Virus record (IMG/VR): IMGVR_UViG_3300038530_003085
Location: 123,394 to 187,393 of that record
From: a virus
Taxonomy: Duplodnaviria; Caudoviricetes
Strand: one strand, 5' to 3'
Length of the DNA: 64,000 bases
Both the position numbers and the translations under genes were made by a program. The notes under the pieces are model-generated. The model ran no database searches. It was given only the letters and a program-made list of their open reading frames with translations, and was not told where the DNA came from. The first letter of the stretch is position 1. Every line of letters starts with the position of its first letter. Shown here in pieces: positions 1,260 to 10,251 of the stretch.

Positions 1260-1865
1260 TTAAGTTGTTTCAGTAGTTTCGCTTGGGGGTGTGGGGCTGG
1301 TGGTCGTGGTGATATCTGCTGGGTCTGGCAATTGACCTTTGATTGTCTCTGCCATTTTATTAACTGCTGCAGCTAAACCACCCATTGCAAGGGCAGATAT
1401 AATTGCTGGTTGTTCAGCCATCTTTTTCATAACGTTAAATAGCAACTCAACATTTTCAGGTGTTAATTGTTCAAGTCCTTCTTCAAGTTTACTTTCATTG
1501 GCATCACCAACATTTGCATAAAGTGCAGCTAAATAATCTTTTACTGGGCCATCTGTGCAGCCAACTTTTGAATTATCTTCTTTTTTATAAACACACTTTC
1601 CTTTAGAGTAATAACCTTCAGACAGTTGTTCACCCCTCATATAATTTAATACTGAACTAAGATAATCTTGCGACTTAGTAATCTTGGATTCAACCCACTC
1701 TTCAAGGTTTGTGTCGTCTCCAATCATATCTTGTAGCATCAGTGCAAGTTCTGCTGTTCTGCCAAGTTGGCTGCGAGCCATCGAACCTTCACCGTAGCCA
1801 CCTTCGTTAAGAGAATCAATTTCCTCTTGTATAATTTGTTTAAGTTCGGAGATAGTAATTTTCAT
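1260..1865 (-). CDS. MKIT-leader family protein, multi-module (putative internal head protein)
   Basis: N-terminus MKITISELKQIIQEEIDSLNE, then an EGSMARSQL...WVESKITK module, a C-x11-C module, a hydrophobic helix and a Thr/Pro tail. Confidence 0.6.
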   Translation of the reverse strand: MKITISELKQIIQEEIDSLNEGGYGEGSMARSQLGRTAELALMLQDMIGDDTNLEEWVESKITKSQDYLSSVLNYMRGEQLSEGYYSKGKCVYKKEDNSKVGCTDGPVKDYLAALYANVGDANESKLEEGLEQLTPENVELLFNVMKKMAEQPAIISALAMGGLAAAVNKMAETIKGQLPDPADITTTTSPTPPSETTETT

Positions 1866-1868
1866 TTT

Positions 1869-2177
1869 TTAAAATCCACCTATAGATGTCATCTTTGCAT
1901 TGATCGCAGGATCTGTTAATTTAAATTCAGCAAACGATGCTCTGATAGATTCTTCATCCGCATCTCCGCCATACCATTGAACAAACTTTTCAGTTGCGTT
2001 TAAGCCTTCAAGAAACTTACCACCAAGTCCTGCTTGCTTGCAGATGCCCTCAAAGATCTCTGCTACAGAGGAATCATCTTCCTCAACCAAAACCTCGGTA
2101 ACTTCTTCGGTAATTTCGTCTGTAACTGTTGAGGTTTTTCTAACTAAGGTAGTCCATAAATTTGTTAACCAGTTCAT
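1869..2177 (-). CDS. Hypothetical protein
   Basis: 102-aa ORF, ATGA overlap with the upstream gene, amphipathic N-terminal helix. Confidence 0.7.
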   Translation of the reverse strand: MNWLTNLWTTLVRKTSTVTDEITEEVTEVLVEEDDSSVAEIFEGICKQAGLGGKFLEGLNATEKFVQWYGGDADEESIRASFAEFKLTDPAINAKMTSIGGF

Positions 2178-2434
2178 TTAATTTCTCCTACTTTTTTTAA
2201 TGCTTCAACAAAAGCTTCTAAGTTGGCAACTCTGGTAGCAACTGCATTAAAGTCACCTCTTTGCGCTGCTTGCATAGCATCTTCTAGATTTTCCATAATA
2301 CCTCTTTTGACGCCCTTTACGCTTCTAACTCCGCCACCGGGAACTTCTACATCCGGGCTACGTGTTTGGCCGCGAACATAATCTCTCAATTCTTCATCAA
2401 TAATTTCTTTGAGTATTTGCTTTGTGATTTTCAT
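2174..2434 (-). CDS. MKIT-leader family protein
   Basis: Likely start ATG 2434 (MKITKQILKEIIDEEL) with a GAGG SD and ACTATTTA upstream. Confidence 0.65.
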   Translation of the reverse strand: MKITKQILKEIIDEELRDYVRGQTRSPDVEVPGGGVRSVKGVKRGIMENLEDAMQAAQRGDFNAVATRVANLEAFVEALKKVGEIK

Positions 2435-2464
2435 AGTATATTCCTCTATATGAGTTACTAACAC

Positions 2465-2472
2465 TAAATAGT
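2465..2472 (-). promoter_or_regulatory. Putative phage late promoter motif ACTATTTA
   Basis: Intergenic, about 31 nt upstream of ATG 2434; the same 8-mer precedes 9310, 15698 and 39434. Confidence 0.5.
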
Positions 2473-2489
2473 TTAATTTAAAGTAAAAA

Positions 2490-3137
2490 CTAATTTTCAG
2501 ATGTGGCCCATATTATATTTTTAAACTTCTCTGGCTGTAAACCATAGTAGTTAGTTTTCCACTCTGACTGCTCAAAAAAATCTAAATTAATCCAATCATC
2601 TCTAAACTGCCAAAGTTTTTCTGCCTCCTCATCCCAATTTTTACTTAAAACAAAAGATTCAATTTCTTGTTTTTTAGCTTGCACAGTATCGTAGTCAAAC
2701 CCATCCCACTCATAGTGAAAAACCTCGAAGACACGACCAGAACGATCAACATAATCTATACTAACATCTATTCCCCACTTTGGTTGCATATTGATAACTT
2801 TCCAAAGCATTGGGTTAATGCCAGAATATTTTACTAATTGTTTAACTGCATCACCAGAAAATGCTTTTCTTTCAAATAACTCGCAGTGATTAAAATGTGC
2901 GCCTGTATTCTTATCCCACTCCATCCACGGTTTATGAATTACCCAATCTTGCCTTCGTAGATTTATATCATAGTCTGATATATTTGCATATGCTCGCTCA
3001 ACTTCTGTCAAGTGATAACCATTCTGATCAAACAGAGCAGTGCAGTTGCGATTTAATAATATATCAGGATTTGCTATGGGTTTTGTCCAAAAACCATCTG
3101 TGTCAAACAAAGATTCTAGAACAACTATTTCACTCAT
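2490..3137 (-). CDS. Hypothetical phage protein (Trp/aromatic-rich)
   Basis: 215-aa ORF in operon context; no motif recognised. Confidence 0.7.
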   Translation of the reverse strand: MSEIVVLESLFDTDGFWTKPIANPDILLNRNCTALFDQNGYHLTEVERAYANISDYDINLRRQDWVIHKPWMEWDKNTGAHFNHCELFERKAFSGDAVKQLVKYSGINPMLWKVINMQPKWGIDVSIDYVDRSGRVFEVFHYEWDGFDYDTVQAKKQEIESFVLSKNWDEEAEKLWQFRDDWINLDFFEQSEWKTNYYGLQPEKFKNIIWATSEN

Positions 3138-3143
3138 CTTAAT

Positions 3144-3383
3144 TCAGTTGGCCAAGTCTCGTTTAGCGCTATCCATTTCATCCTTGTGACGCTCAAGCCA
3201 GCGCTCAGCTTCTTCATCAGAAAGATCAGTAGTTAAACTCTTTAGTGTTTCCTTGGCGCTTTTTCCTGTTTTCATCATTTTTTTAACGACAAGCTGGGCT
3301 GAATGTGGTACTGCGCGCTCATCAAGTGTGGCTTCCAATTCCTCTTTAATAATCTGCTTAAGTTGTTGTTTTGTAATCTTCAT
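3144..3383 (-). CDS. MKIT-leader family protein
   Basis: N-terminus MKITKQQLKQIIKEELEATLDE. Confidence 0.7.
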   Translation of the reverse strand: MKITKQQLKQIIKEELEATLDERAVPHSAQLVVKKMMKTGKSAKETLKSLTTDLSDEEAERWLERHKDEMDSAKRDLAN

Positions 3384-3421
3384 GTTGCTAATCCATTCAT
3401 ACTATAATTGTTTTCAAATCT

Positions 3422-3685
3422 TCAATTTTTTGAGTAGACACCTTCAAGCGCATCATAATAAGGATCCAACTTCTTATTGTTCATGGCAGCATCAATCTGA
3501 TCATCGCTTAACTGTGGAAATTGTTGCTTAACCGCATTGTGAAGATCTGTATTATCCATGTCATCAAAGGGAGAGTCTTTGATGATCTTAATGATTGCAT
3601 CAACCAATGATTCTTTTAAAACCTCTGTCTTCTCTTCCATAAAATAACGAGGATCAAATCTTTTTGTGTTTTTATGTCTAGCCAT
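3422..3685 (-). CDS. Hypothetical protein (DPRYF...LKE N-terminus)
   Basis: 87 aa with a GGAG SD; basic N-terminus followed by an LxE site and a small acidic helical domain. Confidence 0.65.
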   Translation of the reverse strand: MARHKNTKRFDPRYFMEEKTEVLKESLVDAIIKIIKDSPFDDMDNTDLHNAVKQQFPQLSDDQIDAAMNNKKLDPYYDALEGVYSKN

Positions 3686-3694
3686 TATAATCTC

Positions 3695-4831
3695 CTATGT
3701 TGCCAATCCATTCATACTTAGTATCGCAATCAAACCGGGCACATTTTTTCTGACATAAACACCAGAGAAAAGTGTCTCACATCGACCGCCGACATAAGCG
3801 ATTGCCGACTCAATATTTTTGCTAACTCTTGGGTCAGCTACCATCTCTTCTGATACAACCAGCACCAATGATCCTGCTGCAGCCTTACCTTTGGGTGGAG
3901 GACAGGCAGAACGATTCATGCAGTTATGGAGGATCACCGATCCAAGCTTTCCAGTATTTGGATCTTTAATCATAGTTGAGCCCATGAAGGCACGACCGTC
4001 ATTGCCCAGACAAGTTTCTAAGTCCTTACTATCAAAAGACTGGATCGGTGAATCCTCATTGGAGAGTTTCAAAACTTGGGCTAATGACTTTGCAAATTGT
4101 GTGTTGGCGACCGGATACATACCCAGCATACCAATTCTACCACGAAGTAATCTTGTTGCTCGTTCGTTATCAAGAATGATGTGTGGATGTCTTGACACAT
4201 CATTCGCAAGAGTGAGAGCATTTCTAGCTATTGTGGGGTTGAGATTTTCTTGTGCTGTTGGCCAAGATGTGACATACACTACTTGCCCAGAAGCTTGAAC
4301 AGAGCGAAGGTACCGCTCAAACACAGGATGAAGAGCAGTGACAGAACTACCGGTCCCACCGCCACCGCCAGCAAGGACGAATAACCAATCAACTTTACCA
4401 AGTTTGATGCGCAGAGCATCTTCAACAATCGCTCCATTTTGTGTTAATACCTCTTTTCCATATTCTACATTTTTGCCAATACCGTCGGCATCGGGAATGA
4501 GGACAACGTGATCCTCTTCAACATTCTTAGGAATGTCTTTGCCTGTTGTATTAACAAGCAATGTTTTGTTAAAGCCAAGCTCAATAAAAGCGTTAGCCAT
4601 TTTGTTGCCTCCACCGCCGACGCCAACAAAGCCCACATTAATTGAAGAAGGAGCGGTATTTTCTGGGAGTAAATCTTCATCAGAGTATTCCATCTGTAAT
4701 CCAAAATCTTCGACCATTCCGAAATCCTCAGCATCAACTTCTTCGTGATAGTGGTCTTTCTCCTGATTAAAGGAGGGTGGTGGTTCCGCGGGAGGCAGAA
4801 AATCAAATTCGTTGTTATCGTTGTTAGACAT
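3695..4831 (-). CDS. Tubulin/FtsZ-family GTPase (phage tubulin, PhuZ/TubZ-like)
   Basis: VGVGGGGNK T1 loop, GGGGGTGS tubulin signature, ILDNE, T7-like FDSKD; acidic N-terminal extension. Confidence 0.9.
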   Translation of the reverse strand: MSNNDNNEFDFLPPAEPPPSFNQEKDHYHEEVDAEDFGMVEDFGLQMEYSDEDLLPENTAPSSINVGFVGVGGGGNKMANAFIELGFNKTLLVNTTGKDIPKNVEEDHVVLIPDADGIGKNVEYGKEVLTQNGAIVEDALRIKLGKVDWLFVLAGGGGGTGSSVTALHPVFERYLRSVQASGQVVYVTSWPTAQENLNPTIARNALTLANDVSRHPHIILDNERATRLLRGRIGMLGMYPVANTQFAKSLAQVLKLSNEDSPIQSFDSKDLETCLGNDGRAFMGSTMIKDPNTGKLGSVILHNCMNRSACPPPKGKAAAGSLVLVVSEEMVADPRVSKNIESAIAYVGGRCETLFSGVYVRKNVPGLIAILSMNGLAT

Positions 4832-5184
4832 TATTTATATGTATCCTTAATTACTGCAGCCATCTTATCACCATATCGTGTGTATGGTTGATCAGCCGTA
4901 AGCTGTGATAGCAAGTCTTGTGCTTCTGTATCTGAGTATGTAGAGAAAGCAGCACGAATGACATCTTCAGCATATCTTCTTTTTATTTTCTCATTACCTA
5001 TATCCAATTTAGAATATAAATTTTTTAGAGGCTTTAAAACCATTTTTACATATTCAGGATTATCAAATGCTTTTGCTAAGTTAAAAACTTCTTGTCGAAA
5101 TTCTCTCTGAGATAATCTTTCAGTTAGAACTGATTCTAACTCTTCTTTGATGACTTGCTTAAGTTCTGACCTTTTCATTTTCAT
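4831..5184 (-). CDS. MKIT-leader family protein
   Basis: N-terminus MKMKRSELKQVIKEELESVLTE. Confidence 0.65.
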   Translation of the reverse strand: MKMKRSELKQVIKEELESVLTERLSQREFRQEVFNLAKAFDNPEYVKMVLKPLKNLYSKLDIGNEKIKRRYAEDVIRAAFSTYSDTEAQDLLSQLTADQPYTRYGDKMAAVIKDTYK

Positions 5185-8100
5185 TATTGGTTAACCTTTG
5201 CATATCCTGCTTTTTTATCAATCACGATTTGCATATCAACACAATCTTTGAGCGAATCAAGGTGCGAGATTAACAAAACATTCTTGAAATATACCTTAAT
5301 TAGTTCCAAAATCTGAATAAAACCCGACATATTGTCTTCGTCCAATGCTGTACCCGGCTCATCAAGGATAAATAAGTCTGACTTTGGCAGAGATGAAACT
5401 CCCAACAATGCTAAGCGGATAGCCATTGCTGACAGTGATTTTTCAGCGCCAGATGCCATTTCAATGGGTCGCTCTTCATACTTTGGATGCTTGATATTGA
5501 TATCAAACTTATTACCTGCAGCTTCAAAGAATACTTCAAAGTCAACAATATTAGCAAGCACCTTCGCAATCTCTTCGTTGATTACTGGTATCTTCTTCTT
5601 AATAACATCGTAAGCGATACCATTTGGGTGCATACATTGCATAAACAGGTCATACGCAGCAAACTCGGTCTGTAGATCTTGGTATTCCTGCTTTTGTTCT
5701 TTAATAGTTTCAATCTTTTGTTCGTATGAACCAACAGACTTGACAAGCTCAAGTGTGGCAGCATCACAGGTATCAATCTTCTTTTGTGTTTGTTCAATCT
5801 TATAATGACACTTGTTTAGCTGAGTTACCAACACTTCAAGGTTTTCAATTGCTTCCTTGTTTTCTTCATACTCGTCACGCTTGGTACGTAATTCTTTTAG
5901 CTTATCTTCCAAAGACAGGACAGAGTTTTTGTTTCTTTCAATCTCAAGATTTAAATCAGCAATCTCTGATGATACGGTGTGTTTGTTGGACTCTATCTTA
6001 TTATACCGTTCAAATTGTATTTCTACATCAGCAGGATTTAGACTTTTAATTTCTTCCGTGATTATATTAATTGTTTGTAATGTGTCAGCTTGTTGAGATT
6101 CAACATCAGCTTTTCTGCTAACGGCTGATTGTGCTTCTTTGACAAACTCATTACTAGAACAATATTTACAATCAGGATCATATTCATGATCGTGCAACAA
6201 ACTCTCTTTCTTTAAAATATAGTTGTGTTCTTCAATTAATTTGTCGAGATTGTCCTCCTGAGTTTTTAGTTGTTCTTTATACTGATTAATTTGTTGTCGC
6301 TGTGTTTCAAATTTTTGCAAATCAAACTCATCGAGAAAACTTACAATTTTCTTATACACACCTTGTTTTGTTTTTAAAGTATCAGCAAATTTGTCATTCT
6401 CAAGATTGTGTTTGGTTATTTCATTTTCTTTTAATCTAATTTCTTTGTTAACTGCCGAGATGTCAATAATTTCAGCAGGTATGGAATCAATCTTAGACTC
6501 AATCTCATTTTTAACATCAGTCAACTCTACAACTGCTTCTTTCAAGGCAGTGCAGACCGACTTATGTTCACTCATCTGCTGTCTAGCTTCGATGAGTGAT
6601 GCGTTCACAGCATCAAGTTCATCGTCATAGTTTTTACTTTCGAGTCTCTTGAGAGCGCCCTTAAGATCAACTGAATCTTCCTTGGCTAACTTAAACTTGC
6701 GATCAAACAACTCAAGATCAAGAAACTTAGCTATAATCTCTTTACGACGAGTTGAACCTTCATCAATAAATGCCAAAGCACCGTGCTGTGATGATAAAGA
6801 TGAAACTGCAAAGTCATCAAGTGTACCAAACTGTTTTCGTATGTTGGCATCGGTGAGTGTTCTTGTGAGACCATTTAAAGATGTAGTTTCATCCATAACT
6901 GGGTCATACACTTCAAAGTTCAACTCCGTCTTAGCCTCTAGTGTCTCTTCACCTTTCAGCCTTTTGATGTACTTCTTAGCTTTTCGTTCGACTGTATAGA
7001 CCAAATCATTAATCTGTATTGTTACCTTTCCGCGACAATCTTCTTTGTTCTGGTTAATAACATTCAAGTTCTTTCGTTCATTCTTGGATGTTGTATTAAA
7101 TAGTGTCCACAGGATACCATCAATAATACTACTCTTACCAGAAAAGTTTTTACCAAAGATTCCAATAATGCCACTTAGCTCTTCAAAGCTAACATTATTA
7201 CCATCCCCGTAATTAAACAGATTGTCAAACTCAAAGTCAACAAGTTTCCAGTTAATATTTCTCGATACATCTTCATTGTCCTCAACAATTTTATTATACT
7301 TCTTATTTAGTTCGTAAACTTTCTCAAGTGTAGTTTCTGCTACTTCGTAATCGACCAAATATTCATCGATTAGTTCTTCTTGTACTTTGATATCCCGCAG
7401 ATTTTCAGTTTGCAGACCATCAGTTAGTGCCTCAACAGATCCCCGCTCACCAGATGCACGATTTAAAAATGATATTGTTTCTGGCTTAAAACGATGCTTT
7501 GCTACGTCAACTGCTCTCTTCATAGCATCGAGCGGTAAATTATTATTGCTAACGAGACGGAGACGAGCACCAAGCGGAATAGAAATATTCTTTGGCATTC
7601 GTCCCTTGCGTGTAAGCTCGATAGTAATAAATGGCTTTGGGTTAGTAAGCGAGACGTGCCTTGTTGTCCAAGTATTTTTATCTTGGATATCCCAAATAAG
7701 ATAACCCTTATCATTTGACTCGCCATGATTCTGTTGCACAAGTGAGCCCGGGTATCGTGCTCGACCATCATTGTCAACTTTTTGATCTGTCTTGTGAATA
7801 TCACCCAGCATTGCATAATCATACTTCTCAAGCTCTTCGAGTGATATGTCACCGTGCGTCATCATCCAGCCACTATCAGTCACTGAACCTACGACGGAAC
7901 CATGGTACAACGCAATATTAACTCGATCATCCGGCAGTTCTTTTTGCCAATTCTCTGGATCAACTATTGATAGTACGTGCAAGTCAATACCGGGTGCAAC
8001 CTCAACTACTGATGCGTATTTATGAAAGTGAATATTTGGGTGCTCTAGATAATCAACAATCGGAGATATAGCATCTAGCCGACCACTATTCTTGAGGTTC

Positions 8101-8351
8101 ATATCGTGATTGCCAAGAATCATATGATATGGTGCGATATCTGCCAAACCAACAAATAACTCACTCATCATCCTAATTGCTTCAGGGCTTAAATCTAACT
8201 TTGTATGAAACGTATCACCGGTGTTAACGATAATATCAGGCTTTTCTTCTCTTAGCTTTTCATAAAGCTGTTCAAATACGGCTCGATATTCTTTGTGGTA
8301 TTTAAGTTTTCGCACATGAATATCAGAGACGTGTGCTATTTTAATGCTCAC
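5184..8351 (-). CDS. Fused Mre11/SbcD nuclease - Rad50/SbcC ATPase (gp47-gp46-like)
   Basis: Likely GTG start 8351 with a GGAG SD. Metallophosphoesterase motifs DIH, GD, GNHD, GDIH; Walker A GKNFSGKSS; coiled coil with zinc hook CKYC; ASGAE signature; Walker B ILDE; ISH loop. Confidence 0.92.
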   Translation of the reverse strand: MSIKIAHVSDIHVRKLKYHKEYRAVFEQLYEKLREEKPDIIVNTGDTFHTKLDLSPEAIRMMSELFVGLADIAPYHMILGNHDMNLKNSGRLDAISPIVDYLEHPNIHFHKYASVVEVAPGIDLHVLSIVDPENWQKELPDDRVNIALYHGSVVGSVTDSGWMMTHGDISLEELEKYDYAMLGDIHKTDQKVDNDGRARYPGSLVQQNHGESNDKGYLIWDIQDKNTWTTRHVSLTNPKPFITIELTRKGRMPKNISIPLGARLRLVSNNNLPLDAMKRAVDVAKHRFKPETISFLNRASGERGSVEALTDGLQTENLRDIKVQEELIDEYLVDYEVAETTLEKVYELNKKYNKIVEDNEDVSRNINWKLVDFEFDNLFNYGDGNNVSFEELSGIIGIFGKNFSGKSSIIDGILWTLFNTTSKNERKNLNVINQNKEDCRGKVTIQINDLVYTVERKAKKYIKRLKGEETLEAKTELNFEVYDPVMDETTSLNGLTRTLTDANIRKQFGTLDDFAVSSLSSQHGALAFIDEGSTRRKEIIAKFLDLELFDRKFKLAKEDSVDLKGALKRLESKNYDDELDAVNASLIEARQQMSEHKSVCTALKEAVVELTDVKNEIESKIDSIPAEIIDISAVNKEIRLKENEITKHNLENDKFADTLKTKQGVYKKIVSFLDEFDLQKFETQRQQINQYKEQLKTQEDNLDKLIEEHNYILKKESLLHDHEYDPDCKYCSSNEFVKEAQSAVSRKADVESQQADTLQTINIITEEIKSLNPADVEIQFERYNKIESNKHTVSSEIADLNLEIERNKNSVLSLEDKLKELRTKRDEYEENKEAIENLEVLVTQLNKCHYKIEQTQKKIDTCDAATLELVKSVGSYEQKIETIKEQKQEYQDLQTEFAAYDLFMQCMHPNGIAYDVIKKKIPVINEEIAKVLANIVDFEVFFEAAGNKFDINIKHPKYEERPIEMASGAEKSLSAMAIRLALLGVSSLPKSDLFILDEPGTALDEDNMSGFIQILELIKVYFKNVLLISHLDSLKDCVDMQIVIDKKAGYAKVNQ

Positions 8352-8359
8352 AAACTCTC

Positions 8360-8455
8360 CTAGTTTAACATCATCCAAAAGAGAGCACTGAAACCATACC
8401 ATGAGGTATAAATGAAGATCGCTTTTACAAGTGTATCAATGATAAAACTAAACAT
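8360..8455 (-). CDS. Small hydrophobic peptide (31 aa), not in ORF track
   Basis: GGAGGG SD then ATG 8455; MFSFIIDTLVKAIFIYTSWYGFSALFWMMLN; its TAG overlaps the SD of the nuclease gene. Confidence 0.6.
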   Translation of the reverse strand: MFSFIIDTLVKAIFIYTSWYGFSALFWMMLN

Positions 8456-8475
8456 ATGTGCCCTCCAATATATAT

Positions 8476-8504
8476 ACTATATCACTGCACTAGCAAGCTG
8501 TCAA
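8476..8504 (-). promoter_or_regulatory. Sigma70-type promoter
   Basis: TTGACA (8504-8499), 17-nt spacer, TATAGT (8481-8476). Confidence 0.8.
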
Positions 8505-9310
8505 GCATTTTCTTTAAAAGTGTTCTTACCCTTGGCACCACGTTCAGCAGTTTTATCTAATAGTGCTTTGTATGCGATTGACCAAGATGCAGGTAGAAGC
8601 TTGGTTCCAGTAGATTTTGAATTGTAAAAGTTACCTTGCCCTTCGGAACCCCATTTATTGAAATCTCTAACTAAATCTGCTAAGGCTTGAATTTCCATTG
8701 TTTGGTAATACTGCTTTAGATCTTCTTTTTCTGCCCCACGAGTAAAAGTATCTTTGTATCCATCAGGAAGGCTATCATATGGAACATATGTTATATATAC
8801 GCCGCCCCTTGCGGTTTGTTGCATTTTACCTGTGCTCTCAACATCACCTTTTGAAACAAATTCGGCTTCAAGTCGGTCCATAGCAATATTTTTTGCCTTG
8901 TCAGCACCAACACCCTTTGCCAAGTCTGCGGGTATGTCACCTTCGCGGCCGCTGGCATCGATGGCTTTCTGAATGAAGTCAGCGCGCGCGGCGGACATGT
9001 TTTGGCTAGCATCAAGAGCGTTCTGAATCTGTTCCGCTGCTGCCGGGGTTACCCCAACACCATCAAGCTGCTGTACGTCTGATGCTATTTGACCTCCAAA
9101 AGCAAGTGCTGCCATAACAGTAATCGGTACGGCAGCTTTCTTAGCGGCACTTTTAATTGCATCAAGAACGGTTTTTTCCAATAAGATTGTTTGTTCTTCT
9201 GTCAAGCCAAGTTGCATTTCTGCAATAACTTCGGTAATTGTTTGCTTAACAATACGAAGCTCTACTTCTTCGCGAATAATTTCTTTTAGTCTAGTTTCAG
9301 TAATTAACAT
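8501..9310 (-). CDS. MKIT-leader family protein with hydrophobic segment
   Basis: N-terminus MLITETRLKEIIREEVE, LTE/LLE sites, then KKAAVPITVMAALAFGG. Confidence 0.65.
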   Translation of the reverse strand: MLITETRLKEIIREEVELRIVKQTITEVIAEMQLGLTEEQTILLEKTVLDAIKSAAKKAAVPITVMAALAFGGQIASDVQQLDGVGVTPAAAEQIQNALDASQNMSAARADFIQKAIDASGREGDIPADLAKGVGADKAKNIAMDRLEAEFVSKGDVESTGKMQQTARGGVYITYVPYDSLPDGYKDTFTRGAEKEDLKQYYQTMEIQALADLVRDFNKWGSEGQGNFYNSKSTGTKLLPASWSIAYKALLDKTAERGAKGKNTFKENA

Positions 9311-9312
9311 TA

Positions 9313-10251
9313 TTAAACTGCCGAGAGTAAATCTAGCAATAAATAGTTGTCAGCATCAATAAAAGATGCATTCTTTTTTCTTTGTTCAAATACAGATTTG
9401 GGCATTGAACCAACGTCTTCGTATCCAGACACATCTATTTTGTGAAGTTCAATATCGTATTGTAGAAGCATTTTAATAATCCTTCTTTCTTTGTCTGCTG
9501 CATCTGGGTCAAGGGCGATATAGATTGGGGTGTCGTTCCGTACAATCTTTCGTAATAAGTCGGACCCCGACCGTAGGGTTGAACCCAGAATAGGAACAGC
9601 ATTTCCGGCGACCAGTGCATCAAAAACTCCTTCGACCAATACTAGGTCTTTATTCCAGTCGATATATAGTTCGTTAAAGGTTATATCTTTAGAGGCTCTT
9701 GGATTTTTATACTTGTAAGAATCACCAGTATATGAGCGTGCAATAAAATAACTCACATCCCCATCTTCGTCAAACGATGGTATGATAATTCTATTACGAT
9801 ATTCGCCATTAAAACAATAACCGATTTTCCATTTGAGAATATCGGCTTTGGTTATACCGCGCTTCATTAGATAATTATAAGCATATACTGCAGTGGCTGG
9901 TAGCTTATCGGCTGCAAGACTTAAGAACTCATCTGGTAGTTCTAGCTTTTGTACAATTTTTTCAGGCTTGTCATCCATAAAGAGGTCATTAAATCTCTCC
10001 AAATCTTGACGCCCGAATATTTGGTCCCACGCAGCAAGTTGGTTATAGTTGCCAAACCGACGCACAACACGCCTAATATTCCGGCCGCGATAATCACAAA
10101 TCCAACATTTGTAGACATTTTTATCAACATTAACAGAAAACTTACGTTTGTGATGGTGGCAGACCGGACAAGTGAATAACATCTCAGAGCCTTTGTCATG
10201 ACAATTTCCCAAGACACCTTGCAATATTTTTTTAGCCTGTCCATTTTTCAT
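9313..10251 (-). CDS. DNA primase (zinc-binding + TOPRIM)
   Basis: CPVC...CWIC zinc domain, RIIIP, KYKNP, VEGVFDA and ALDPD TOPRIM motifs. Confidence 0.88.
   Translation of the reverse strand: MKNGQAKKILQGVLGNCHDKGSEMLFTCPVCHHHKRKFSVNVDKNVYKCWICDYRGRNIRRVVRRFGNYNQLAAWDQIFGRQDLERFNDLFMDDKPEKIVQKLELPDEFLSLAADKLPATAVYAYNYLMKRGITKADILKWKIGYCFNGEYRNRIIIPSFDEDGDVSYFIARSYTGDSYKYKNPRASKDITFNELYIDWNKDLVLVEGVFDALVAGNAVPILGSTLRSGSDLLRKIVRNDTPIYIALDPDAADKERRIIKMLLQYDIELHKIDVSGYEDVGSMPKSVFEQRKKNASFIDADNYLLLDLLSAV
9340..9347 (-). promoter_or_regulatory. Putative late promoter motif ACTATTTA (inside the primase 3' end)
   Basis: 30 nt upstream of ATG 9310, matching the spacing seen at 2465-2472. Confidence 0.4.

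Follow-up and report, generated by a model that had tools for sequence, protein, structure and literature searches.

Why would otherwise unrelated proteins of one virus all begin with the same short peptide? The question is raised by a 64,000-nucleotide stretch of viral DNA (the window, which is the reverse complement of bases 1–64000 of a 145,971-bp IMG/VR virus record with an estimated completeness of 79%), where five minus-strand open reading frames (ORFs) start in the form MKITxxxLKxIIxEE, as does a sixth just outside it. All genes discussed here are on the minus strand of the window, and this is the plus strand in contig orientation. An earlier reading of the same DNA (the original prediction) had taken this leader for a portable tag that loads diverse proteins into the prohead, is removed there by a protease like gp21 of phage T4, and leaves the cargo to be injected into the host. 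We find this capsid-cargo interpretation partly supported, and consider it fairly probable, from sequence patterns and by analogy with T4, that the leader is a lineage-specific, T4-like capsid-targeting propeptide that would be removed by the gp21-type head protease. As far as sequence can tell, the tag is N-terminal and modular, is restricted to one lineage, co-occurs with the protease, and is followed by a candidate cleavage site that is fixed in position and enriched; docking, cleavage and delivery are what we infer from these features.

All five ORFs are present with the predicted N-termini, starting at 1865, 2434, 3383, 5184 and 9310 (Table 1); they had been described as dispersed, but are clustered within 10 kb beside the head module. 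The leader (MKITKSQLKQIIKEE) is 22 residues long and has the core M-K-I-T-K-x-Q-L-K-Q-I-I-K-E-E-[IL], followed by hydrophobic-x-Glu at about residues 20–22. The pattern [LIVM]K.[LIVM][LIVM].EE has exactly five matches in the six-frame translation of the window, and a looser pattern has six in the six frames of the whole 146-kb contig and none elsewhere in it; every core match lies seven codons past a start codon, on the gene strand. Behind the leader, tagged bodies range from 65 to 422 amino acids (aa) without detectable similarity, and pairwise BLASTP of the six found no match better than E = 0.3, in keeping with the earlier statement that the downstream parts share nothing.

The same arrangement recurs widely. 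Eighty related IMG/VR loci, with TerL 85–99% identical, contain 146 further leader copies at the same offset from the start codon, on 122 distinct proteins, and the information content of the leader is high at residues 1–16 and collapses beyond. IMG/VR was also scanned with a degenerate DNA pattern for K-I-T-x3-L-K-x-I-I-x-E-E that leaves the start codon out, and in the loci fetched a start codon directly precedes the pattern at 109/109 sites (ATG at 101, GTG at 8). The two locus sets together contain 309 distinct tagged proteins with a length of 60 aa or more, which fall into 196 body families (BLASTP E < 1e-4), and bodies turn over rapidly between close relatives. Dozens of metagenome proteins found with the 79-aa protein as query match it exactly over the first 22 residues and are unrelated beyond, and a leader profile has 4,593 matching representatives at E ≤ 0.001 among 1.84 billion cluster representatives. 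The tag is thus a real, widespread and unannotated N-terminal peptide, modular and portable across unrelated bodies; the portability that had been proposed is borne out by its start-codon adjacency and by the number of body families. Few of those bodies are recognisable: 5 of 110 family representatives have a Pfam match (DUF6321, FliG_C, DUF6745, EF-hand and MetOD1), among them a FliG C-terminal domain on one tagged protein (E = 1.8e-8) and EF-hands on another.

Conservation had been placed at the level of the peptide, and this proves correct. Synonymous codons vary at nearly all conserved leader positions (for example ATT/ATC/ATA, AAA/AAG, and K to R via AGA/CGT), giving 124 distinct nucleotide versions in the relatives, and therefore it is the peptide, not the DNA or RNA, that is under selection. 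We accordingly regard as extremely improbable the alternative in which the conserved unit is a translation-initiation region or a cassette recombination joint and the peptide itself has no role. Such a unit would suit the purine-rich ribosome site and A-rich spacer that precede the start codon, and the exchange of modules at these joints, but the amino acids are preserved despite free variation at synonymous sites, changes from K to R and from I to V come about via unrelated codons, and some internal leader copies (below) have no start codon.

The candidate cleavage site lies just past the leader. AlphaFold2 (AF2) models of the 201-aa protein and of the sixth, 148-aa protein predict a helix at residues 5–19/20 and then a low-confidence break at the site, and by these models the leader is an amphipathic helix. 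The two models were used for secondary structure alone (mean predicted local distance difference test score, pLDDT, 47.1 for the low-confidence 201-aa model and 61.6 for the 148-aa model, the latter too poor to classify the protein). L/I-x-E follows the helix in four of the five window genes, as had been noted, and is missing from the gene that starts at 2434. Among 538 distinct leaders, 405 have a hydrophobic-x-Glu site ending within residues 18–27, most often at residue 22 (182 leaders) or residue 21 (95), and the residue after it (P1′) is mostly Gly, Ala or Ser. In the TerL-related set the site is found in 87/117 leaders, against 42.6 ± 4.7 in composition-preserving shuffles and 14/117 in a control body stretch. 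Inside the core itself, I12-x-E14 is invariant.

Polyproteins supply a second set of such sites. ORFs that contain the tag two to four times, in tag-body-tag-body order, are enriched among the top matches to the leader profile, and in-frame tag fusions are also seen at the DNA level in loci of the clade (e.g. L063 and L167). There are 138 internal leader copies, with Met kept at position 1 in 61%, and a Glu lies within eight residues upstream of 124 of them. At these junctions the P3 residue before Glu is hydrophobic in 93/124 cases; the remaining Glu residues of these proteins have a hydrophobic residue there in 23.4% (p ~1e-33). Asn, Ser or Gly comes next after the junction Glu in 73%. The junction motif stems in part from a translated ribosome-binding site and A-rich spacer, AGGAG-AACAAA-ATG reading as [KERQ]-E-N-K-M. 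As a full explanation that origin was rejected: it accounts for the Glu, P2, P1′ and the Lys that stands ahead of Met, while the hydrophobic P3 is left unexplained. In separately encoded tagged genes, read in the same frame, the corresponding residue is hydrophobic in just 38/136, and selection therefore favours hydrophobic-x-Glu at the joints where modules have fused.

The 201-aa protein shows a similar boundary inside a body. Aligned with 23 relatives, it consists of the leader, LNE/G (the slash marks the candidate cut), a 60-residue module A, a near-invariant L81-S-E83, and then modules specific to each relative; in its AF2 model both sites fall at or just past helix ends. Module B (GYYSKGK...) follows the leader LDE, the module A LSE, or the MQE of a third module in different relatives, and since it comes after Glu in all three contexts, cutting after Glu would yield an identical mature N-terminus. 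Several otherwise unrelated cargo proteins (the 201-aa protein and relatives) also have in common a module LE-x-(L/I)TPEN followed by an Ala/Gly-rich hydrophobic helix (PA..AL..GG..AA), which may be a membrane-active or oligomerising segment.

These boundaries bear on a further alternative, that the tagged proteins all descend by duplication and divergence from a single small ancestral protein, of which the N-terminus alone has stayed conserved, with no portable tag at all. Gene clustering, and the tandem arrays of up to about 20 leader genes in jumbo relatives, are what paralogy would produce; it does not readily give bodies of such different lengths without detectable similarity, identical body modules behind different upstream contexts, or internal copies of the tag in polyproteins, and we consider it very unlikely. 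A more tentative idea, which we put forward as possible though doubtful, goes beyond capsid targeting: the leader and its flanking hydrophobic-x-Glu sites might form a universal self-excising cassette joint that yields the same mature cargo from separate genes or from polyproteins. A ribosome site, start codon and tag that became fused in frame would then be read through as a linker that the protease can cut. If so, gene boundaries would be fluid, and an abundant marine phage lineage would be able to shuffle thousands of unknown protein families as a payload delivered by its virions. The data on polyproteins and junctions suggest that fusion and fission at cut sites is how such sets of cargo evolve.

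The tag is restricted to one T4-related lineage. Scanning with the leader profile gave 6 matches in the contig itself and many in its relatives: 7 in a complete 190-kb relative, 29 and 28 in jumbo contigs of 289 and 273 kb, 16 in the 484-kb huge phage LR756508, and 3 weak ones of a variant form (MKKSQLRQIIKE) in phage immuto. P-SSM2, Syn9 and HTVC008M have none, nor has T4 at E ≤ 10. The original prediction had also considered that the leader might be a common domain of cellular proteins; the profile is absent from these four leaderless T4-type phages, and the ESM Atlas look-alike clusters of the 201-aa protein, the sole tagged protein queried, are 100% viral and all unnamed.

A gp21-type protease, whose presence the original prediction had set as a check, is encoded 6 kb away (PF03420, E = 1.4e-33; phrog_207, E = 1.1e-57). 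PF03420 (Peptidase S77) is found also in 5/5 large leader-bearing contigs, in LR756508, where several tagged genes flank the protease gene, and in immuto; the S77 protease is encoded in every tagged genome tested and, as expected, in untagged T4-like phages too. When the major capsid protein (MCP) is aligned to the T4 gp23/gp24 cleavage sites (LTE/A, LRE/S), LRE/S is found in this phage and VSE/A in immuto, which suggests that the specificity of the protease is plausibly T4-like. The N-terminus of the prohead protease has an invariant LLRE (residues 5–8) and LLTE (residues 21–24), and these fit autoprocessing sites like LIE-9 of T4 gp21.

Genome content bears also on the proposal that a modifying enzyme recognises the leader, as happens with the precursors of ribosomally synthesised and post-translationally modified peptides (RiPPs). 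A radical-SAM maturase, our example of such an enzyme, was rejected: PF04055 is absent from a 96%-complete jumbo relative with 29 tagged ORFs and from the window's own contig, and where it is present it is not near tagged genes. We judge that the chance of such a role is minimal.

If the leader does address proteins to the capsid, its helix would dock whatever protein trails it onto the assembling prohead core, and the gp21-type (S77) protease would cut after the Glu of hydrophobic-x-Glu sites past the leader, between modules, and ahead of internal leader copies in polyproteins. The cuts would release mature cargo inside the head, and by analogy with IPI–III and Alt of T4 at least part of this cargo would leave with the DNA at infection.

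The timing of expression is less clear-cut. The gene strand of the contig contains 33 copies of the motif CTATTTA, and 13 of them lie 20–45 nt upstream of starts, against about 1 estimated by chance. It is found 22–40 nt upstream of the scaffold, tail tube, baseplate wedge and DNA polymerase genes and also before the gene for a fibre-like protein, with one copy 63 nt upstream of the sheath gene; from this placement it is probably the clade's phage-specific (late or middle-late) promoter element. The original prediction had put ACTATTTA about 30 nt upstream of two leader genes; it is indeed there, at the genes starting at 9310 and 2434, though at a distance of 36–37 nt, and CTATTTA precedes 2 of the 6 leader genes of the contig.

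Several observations weigh against capsid targeting. CTATTTA lies directly upstream of only 4/121 leader genes in the relatives and precedes the DNA polymerase gene too, and the leader genes of the window have genes for replication and recombination as neighbours (primase, Mre11-Rad50, tubulin). Strong sigma-70-like matches are found ahead of the Mre11-Rad50 block and also ahead of the 86-aa gene, although the region is not significantly enriched in them. About 25% of leaders have no hydrophobic-x-E ending within residues 18–27, and hydrophobic-x-E-Gly could be the natural end of an amphipathic helix. The tag has no detectable sequence homology to the T4 targeting peptide, the leader profile being empty in T4, and the likeness between the two is loosely one of composition. 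One conserved tagged protein, that of 148 aa, occupies the position expected of a small terminase. Finally, the clade has no cultured member, and its 129-aa marker protein (below) has no tblastn match in 50,697 phage records.

The first of these points would also fit a helix that docks to a common partner outside the capsid, either a host machine or a phage hub, with hydrophobic-x-Glu-Gly as the helix end and neither cleavage nor packaging; the location among replication genes favours this, as may the timing of expression, which by the scarcity of CTATTTA and the sigma-70-like matches could be early or late. Multi-copy proteins could then serve as multivalent binders, and the 148-aa pre-TerL protein, which is conserved and lies directly upstream of TerL in all relatives, has leader-like helices at both termini and internally (small terminase, packaging adaptor and cargo are all candidate roles for it). 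Docking of this kind leaves unexplained, though, the hydrophobic P3 enrichment upstream of the tag at polyprotein junctions and the near-invariant L-S-E at an internal module boundary. Tubulin, the one obvious local candidate for a partner, was rejected, PF00091 being absent from five other tagged genomes. On balance we think a non-capsid partner unlikely.

The head module itself holds a relative of the tag, in a 129-aa protein that is encoded directly after the protease gene and has a conserved DAYNGVDLFEGT motif. Its N-terminus is a form of the tag two residues shorter that matches the form in immuto, and weak leader-profile matches occur at the same position, after the protease gene, in two jumbo relatives. 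The protein is conserved across the clade and is a good marker gene for it; its 3,859 clusters at 90% identity in metagenomes, none of them named, indicate by themselves the great abundance of the lineage. Leaders of the form MKKSQL..IIKE are encoded in immuto by genes 175, 176, 190 and 198, and one gene with such a leader lies between those for portal and protease. This cultured phage also has a second, unrelated leader, MENxFDLKKFLVENKL..., on four proteins, the products of genes 178, 193, 194 and 201, and one of these genes directly follows that of the prohead protease. In three of the proteins the leader ends in L-K-E before G, N or S, and the fourth has LLE/V. The design recurs here with another tag sequence, in a phage available in culture. 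In T4, the capsid-targeting sequence (CTS) resembles the N-terminus of the scaffold gp22 (MKTYQEFIAE and MLKEQLIAEA, respectively), and T4 internal proteins co-purify with gp22 (PMC9026906).

That a conserved head-module protein has the same N-terminus is also what would be expected if the tagged proteins were prohead fillers or core components like T4 gp67 and gp68, targeted and cleaved but then degraded and expelled and not delivered as effectors. Many bodies are short, helical and of low predicted order, and several have multiple hydrophobic-x-E sites, as such fillers might. The 196 body families and their rapid turnover fit arms-race cargo better than conserved assembly parts, and some bodies have recognisable domains, e.g. 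FliG_C and EF-hand; we therefore hold this account to be improbable and prefer delivered cargo behind a cleaved capsid address.

The source phage is a distant, uncultured, marine branch of the T4-like phages. Judged by TerL, the cultured phages closest to it are immuto (Flavobacterium phage vB_FspM_immuto; 47% identity) and Microcystis phage Mel-JY01 (44%), with cyanophages at about 35%. Neither tblastn with the 26-aa leader nor megablast with the region found a match among 50,697 phage records, Pfam and PHROGs searches, which covered the window's five leader proteins and the proteins encoded around them, gave no tagged protein a significant match, and a search of the literature, by peptide string and by capsid targeting in metagenomes, yielded nothing. 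In contig orientation the gene order is primase, 269-aa leader protein, Mre11-Rad50 fusion, 117-aa leader protein (whose start overlaps the stop codon of the Mre11-Rad50 gene, TAATG), FtsZ/tubulin-like protein, 87-aa ORF, 79-aa leader protein, 215-aa ORF, 86-aa leader protein, 102-aa ORF and 201-aa leader protein. The Mre11-Rad50 fusion is a single ORF in which, judged by eye, an Mre11-like phosphoesterase N-terminus and a Rad50/SbcC-like ATPase are apparent. After a few small ORFs, and past the window edge, comes the 148-aa leader gene, which overlaps the TerL start. The head module follows with TerL, portal, two unknown genes, the gp21-type prohead protease, the 129-aa protein and a ribosomal protein S21 homologue, and a gp22-like acidic scaffold and the MCP are found farther along it.

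Table 1. Positions of the leader genes, promoter-like motifs and related features (window coordinates unless a locus or contig is named)
Feature	Coordinates	Strand	Details
CTATTTA promoter-like motif	9340–9346	minus	36 nt upstream of the 269-aa leader gene
Leader protein, 269 aa	8501–9310	minus	MLITETRLKEIIREE; ITE at residues 25–27, LTE at 36–38, LLE at 43–45
Mre11-Rad50 fusion, 1072 aa	5184–8402	minus	
Leader protein, 117 aa	4831–5184	minus	MKMKRSELKQVIKEE; LTE at residues 20–22
Leader protein, 79 aa	3144–3383	minus	Leader closes with LDE at residues 20–22
CTATTTA promoter-like motif	2465–2471	minus	37 nt upstream of the 86-aa leader gene
Leader protein, 86 aa	2174–2434	minus	True start ATG at 2434; no hydrophobic-x-E site in residues 16–27
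Leader protein, 201 aa	1260–1865	minus	Leader at residues 1–21, ending LNE/G (LNE at 19–21); module A at 23–83, ending L81-S-E83/G; then variable modules
Sixth leader protein, 148 aa	L006:667–1113 (contig 64667–65113)	plus in contig	MQITKKQLRRIILEE; 0.67 kb past the window edge, directly upstream of TerL
Prohead protease	L006:6380–6982 (contig 70380–70982)	plus in contig	PF03420 match at genome 70461–70898
129-aa head-module protein	L006:6992–7381 (contig 70992–71381)	plus in contig	Begins MKKSELKKVIKPLVKE (MKKSELKKVIK)
Ribosomal protein S21 homologue	L006:7388–7630	plus in contig	phrog_21469, E = 6e-6
Second leader of immuto, four genes	L087: 4790–5338, 18615–19616, 19616–19915, 26225–26452		MENxFDLKKFLVENKL...

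If the tag is a capsid address, a profile of 24 positions flags thousands of unannotated marine phage proteins as candidate virion-delivered factors, with possible roles in taking over the host or countering its defences. What is now a block of viral dark matter would become a defined, testable class, the principle of the T4 CTS would reach far past the T-even phages, and engineering would gain a natural packaging tag that a protease releases.

Three known systems are informative for comparison. The CTS on the internal proteins of T4 was reportedly described by Mullaney and Black in 1996. It has the sequence MKTYQEFIAE/A, is carried by the unrelated internal proteins IPI, IPII, IPIII and Alt, and is removed by the prohead protease gp21 (PMC9026906, PMC3012670). 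Like it, the tag described here is a short N-terminal peptide common to otherwise unrelated, fast-evolving small proteins that starts with MK, has a hydrophobic pair and then x-Glu, and ends at a hydrophobic-x-Glu site; in both cases the genome encodes a gp21-family (S77) protease and the tagged genes are outside the core head operon. The tag here is longer (22 residues, against 10–19 in T4), there are 6–30 tagged genes per genome and not 3–4, thousands of body families are involved, and the tag is reused inside polyproteins.

In the giant phages phiKZ, 201phi2-1 and SPN3US, propeptides of ejection or inner-body proteins are cut at S/A-x-E (PMC5694885). These systems resemble the one proposed here in having many head-packaged proteins, multiple processing sites with cleavage after Glu, and paralogues whose identical N-terminal ~15 residues hold the cleavage motif. 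They differ in that the protease is S80-type and recognises A/S-x-E, whereas an S77 protease (PF03420) and P3 = L, M, V or I are found here, and in that common N-termini are limited to pairs of paralogues and do not form a tag on hundreds of families.

The cargo-loading peptides of encapsulins are short and portable and address diverse cargo into an HK97-fold shell. As a short address that takes diverse cargo to the interior of such a shell they are similar in purpose to the tag proposed here, but they are usually C-terminal, remain uncleaved and bind the shell protein directly, with neither protease nor DNA involved.

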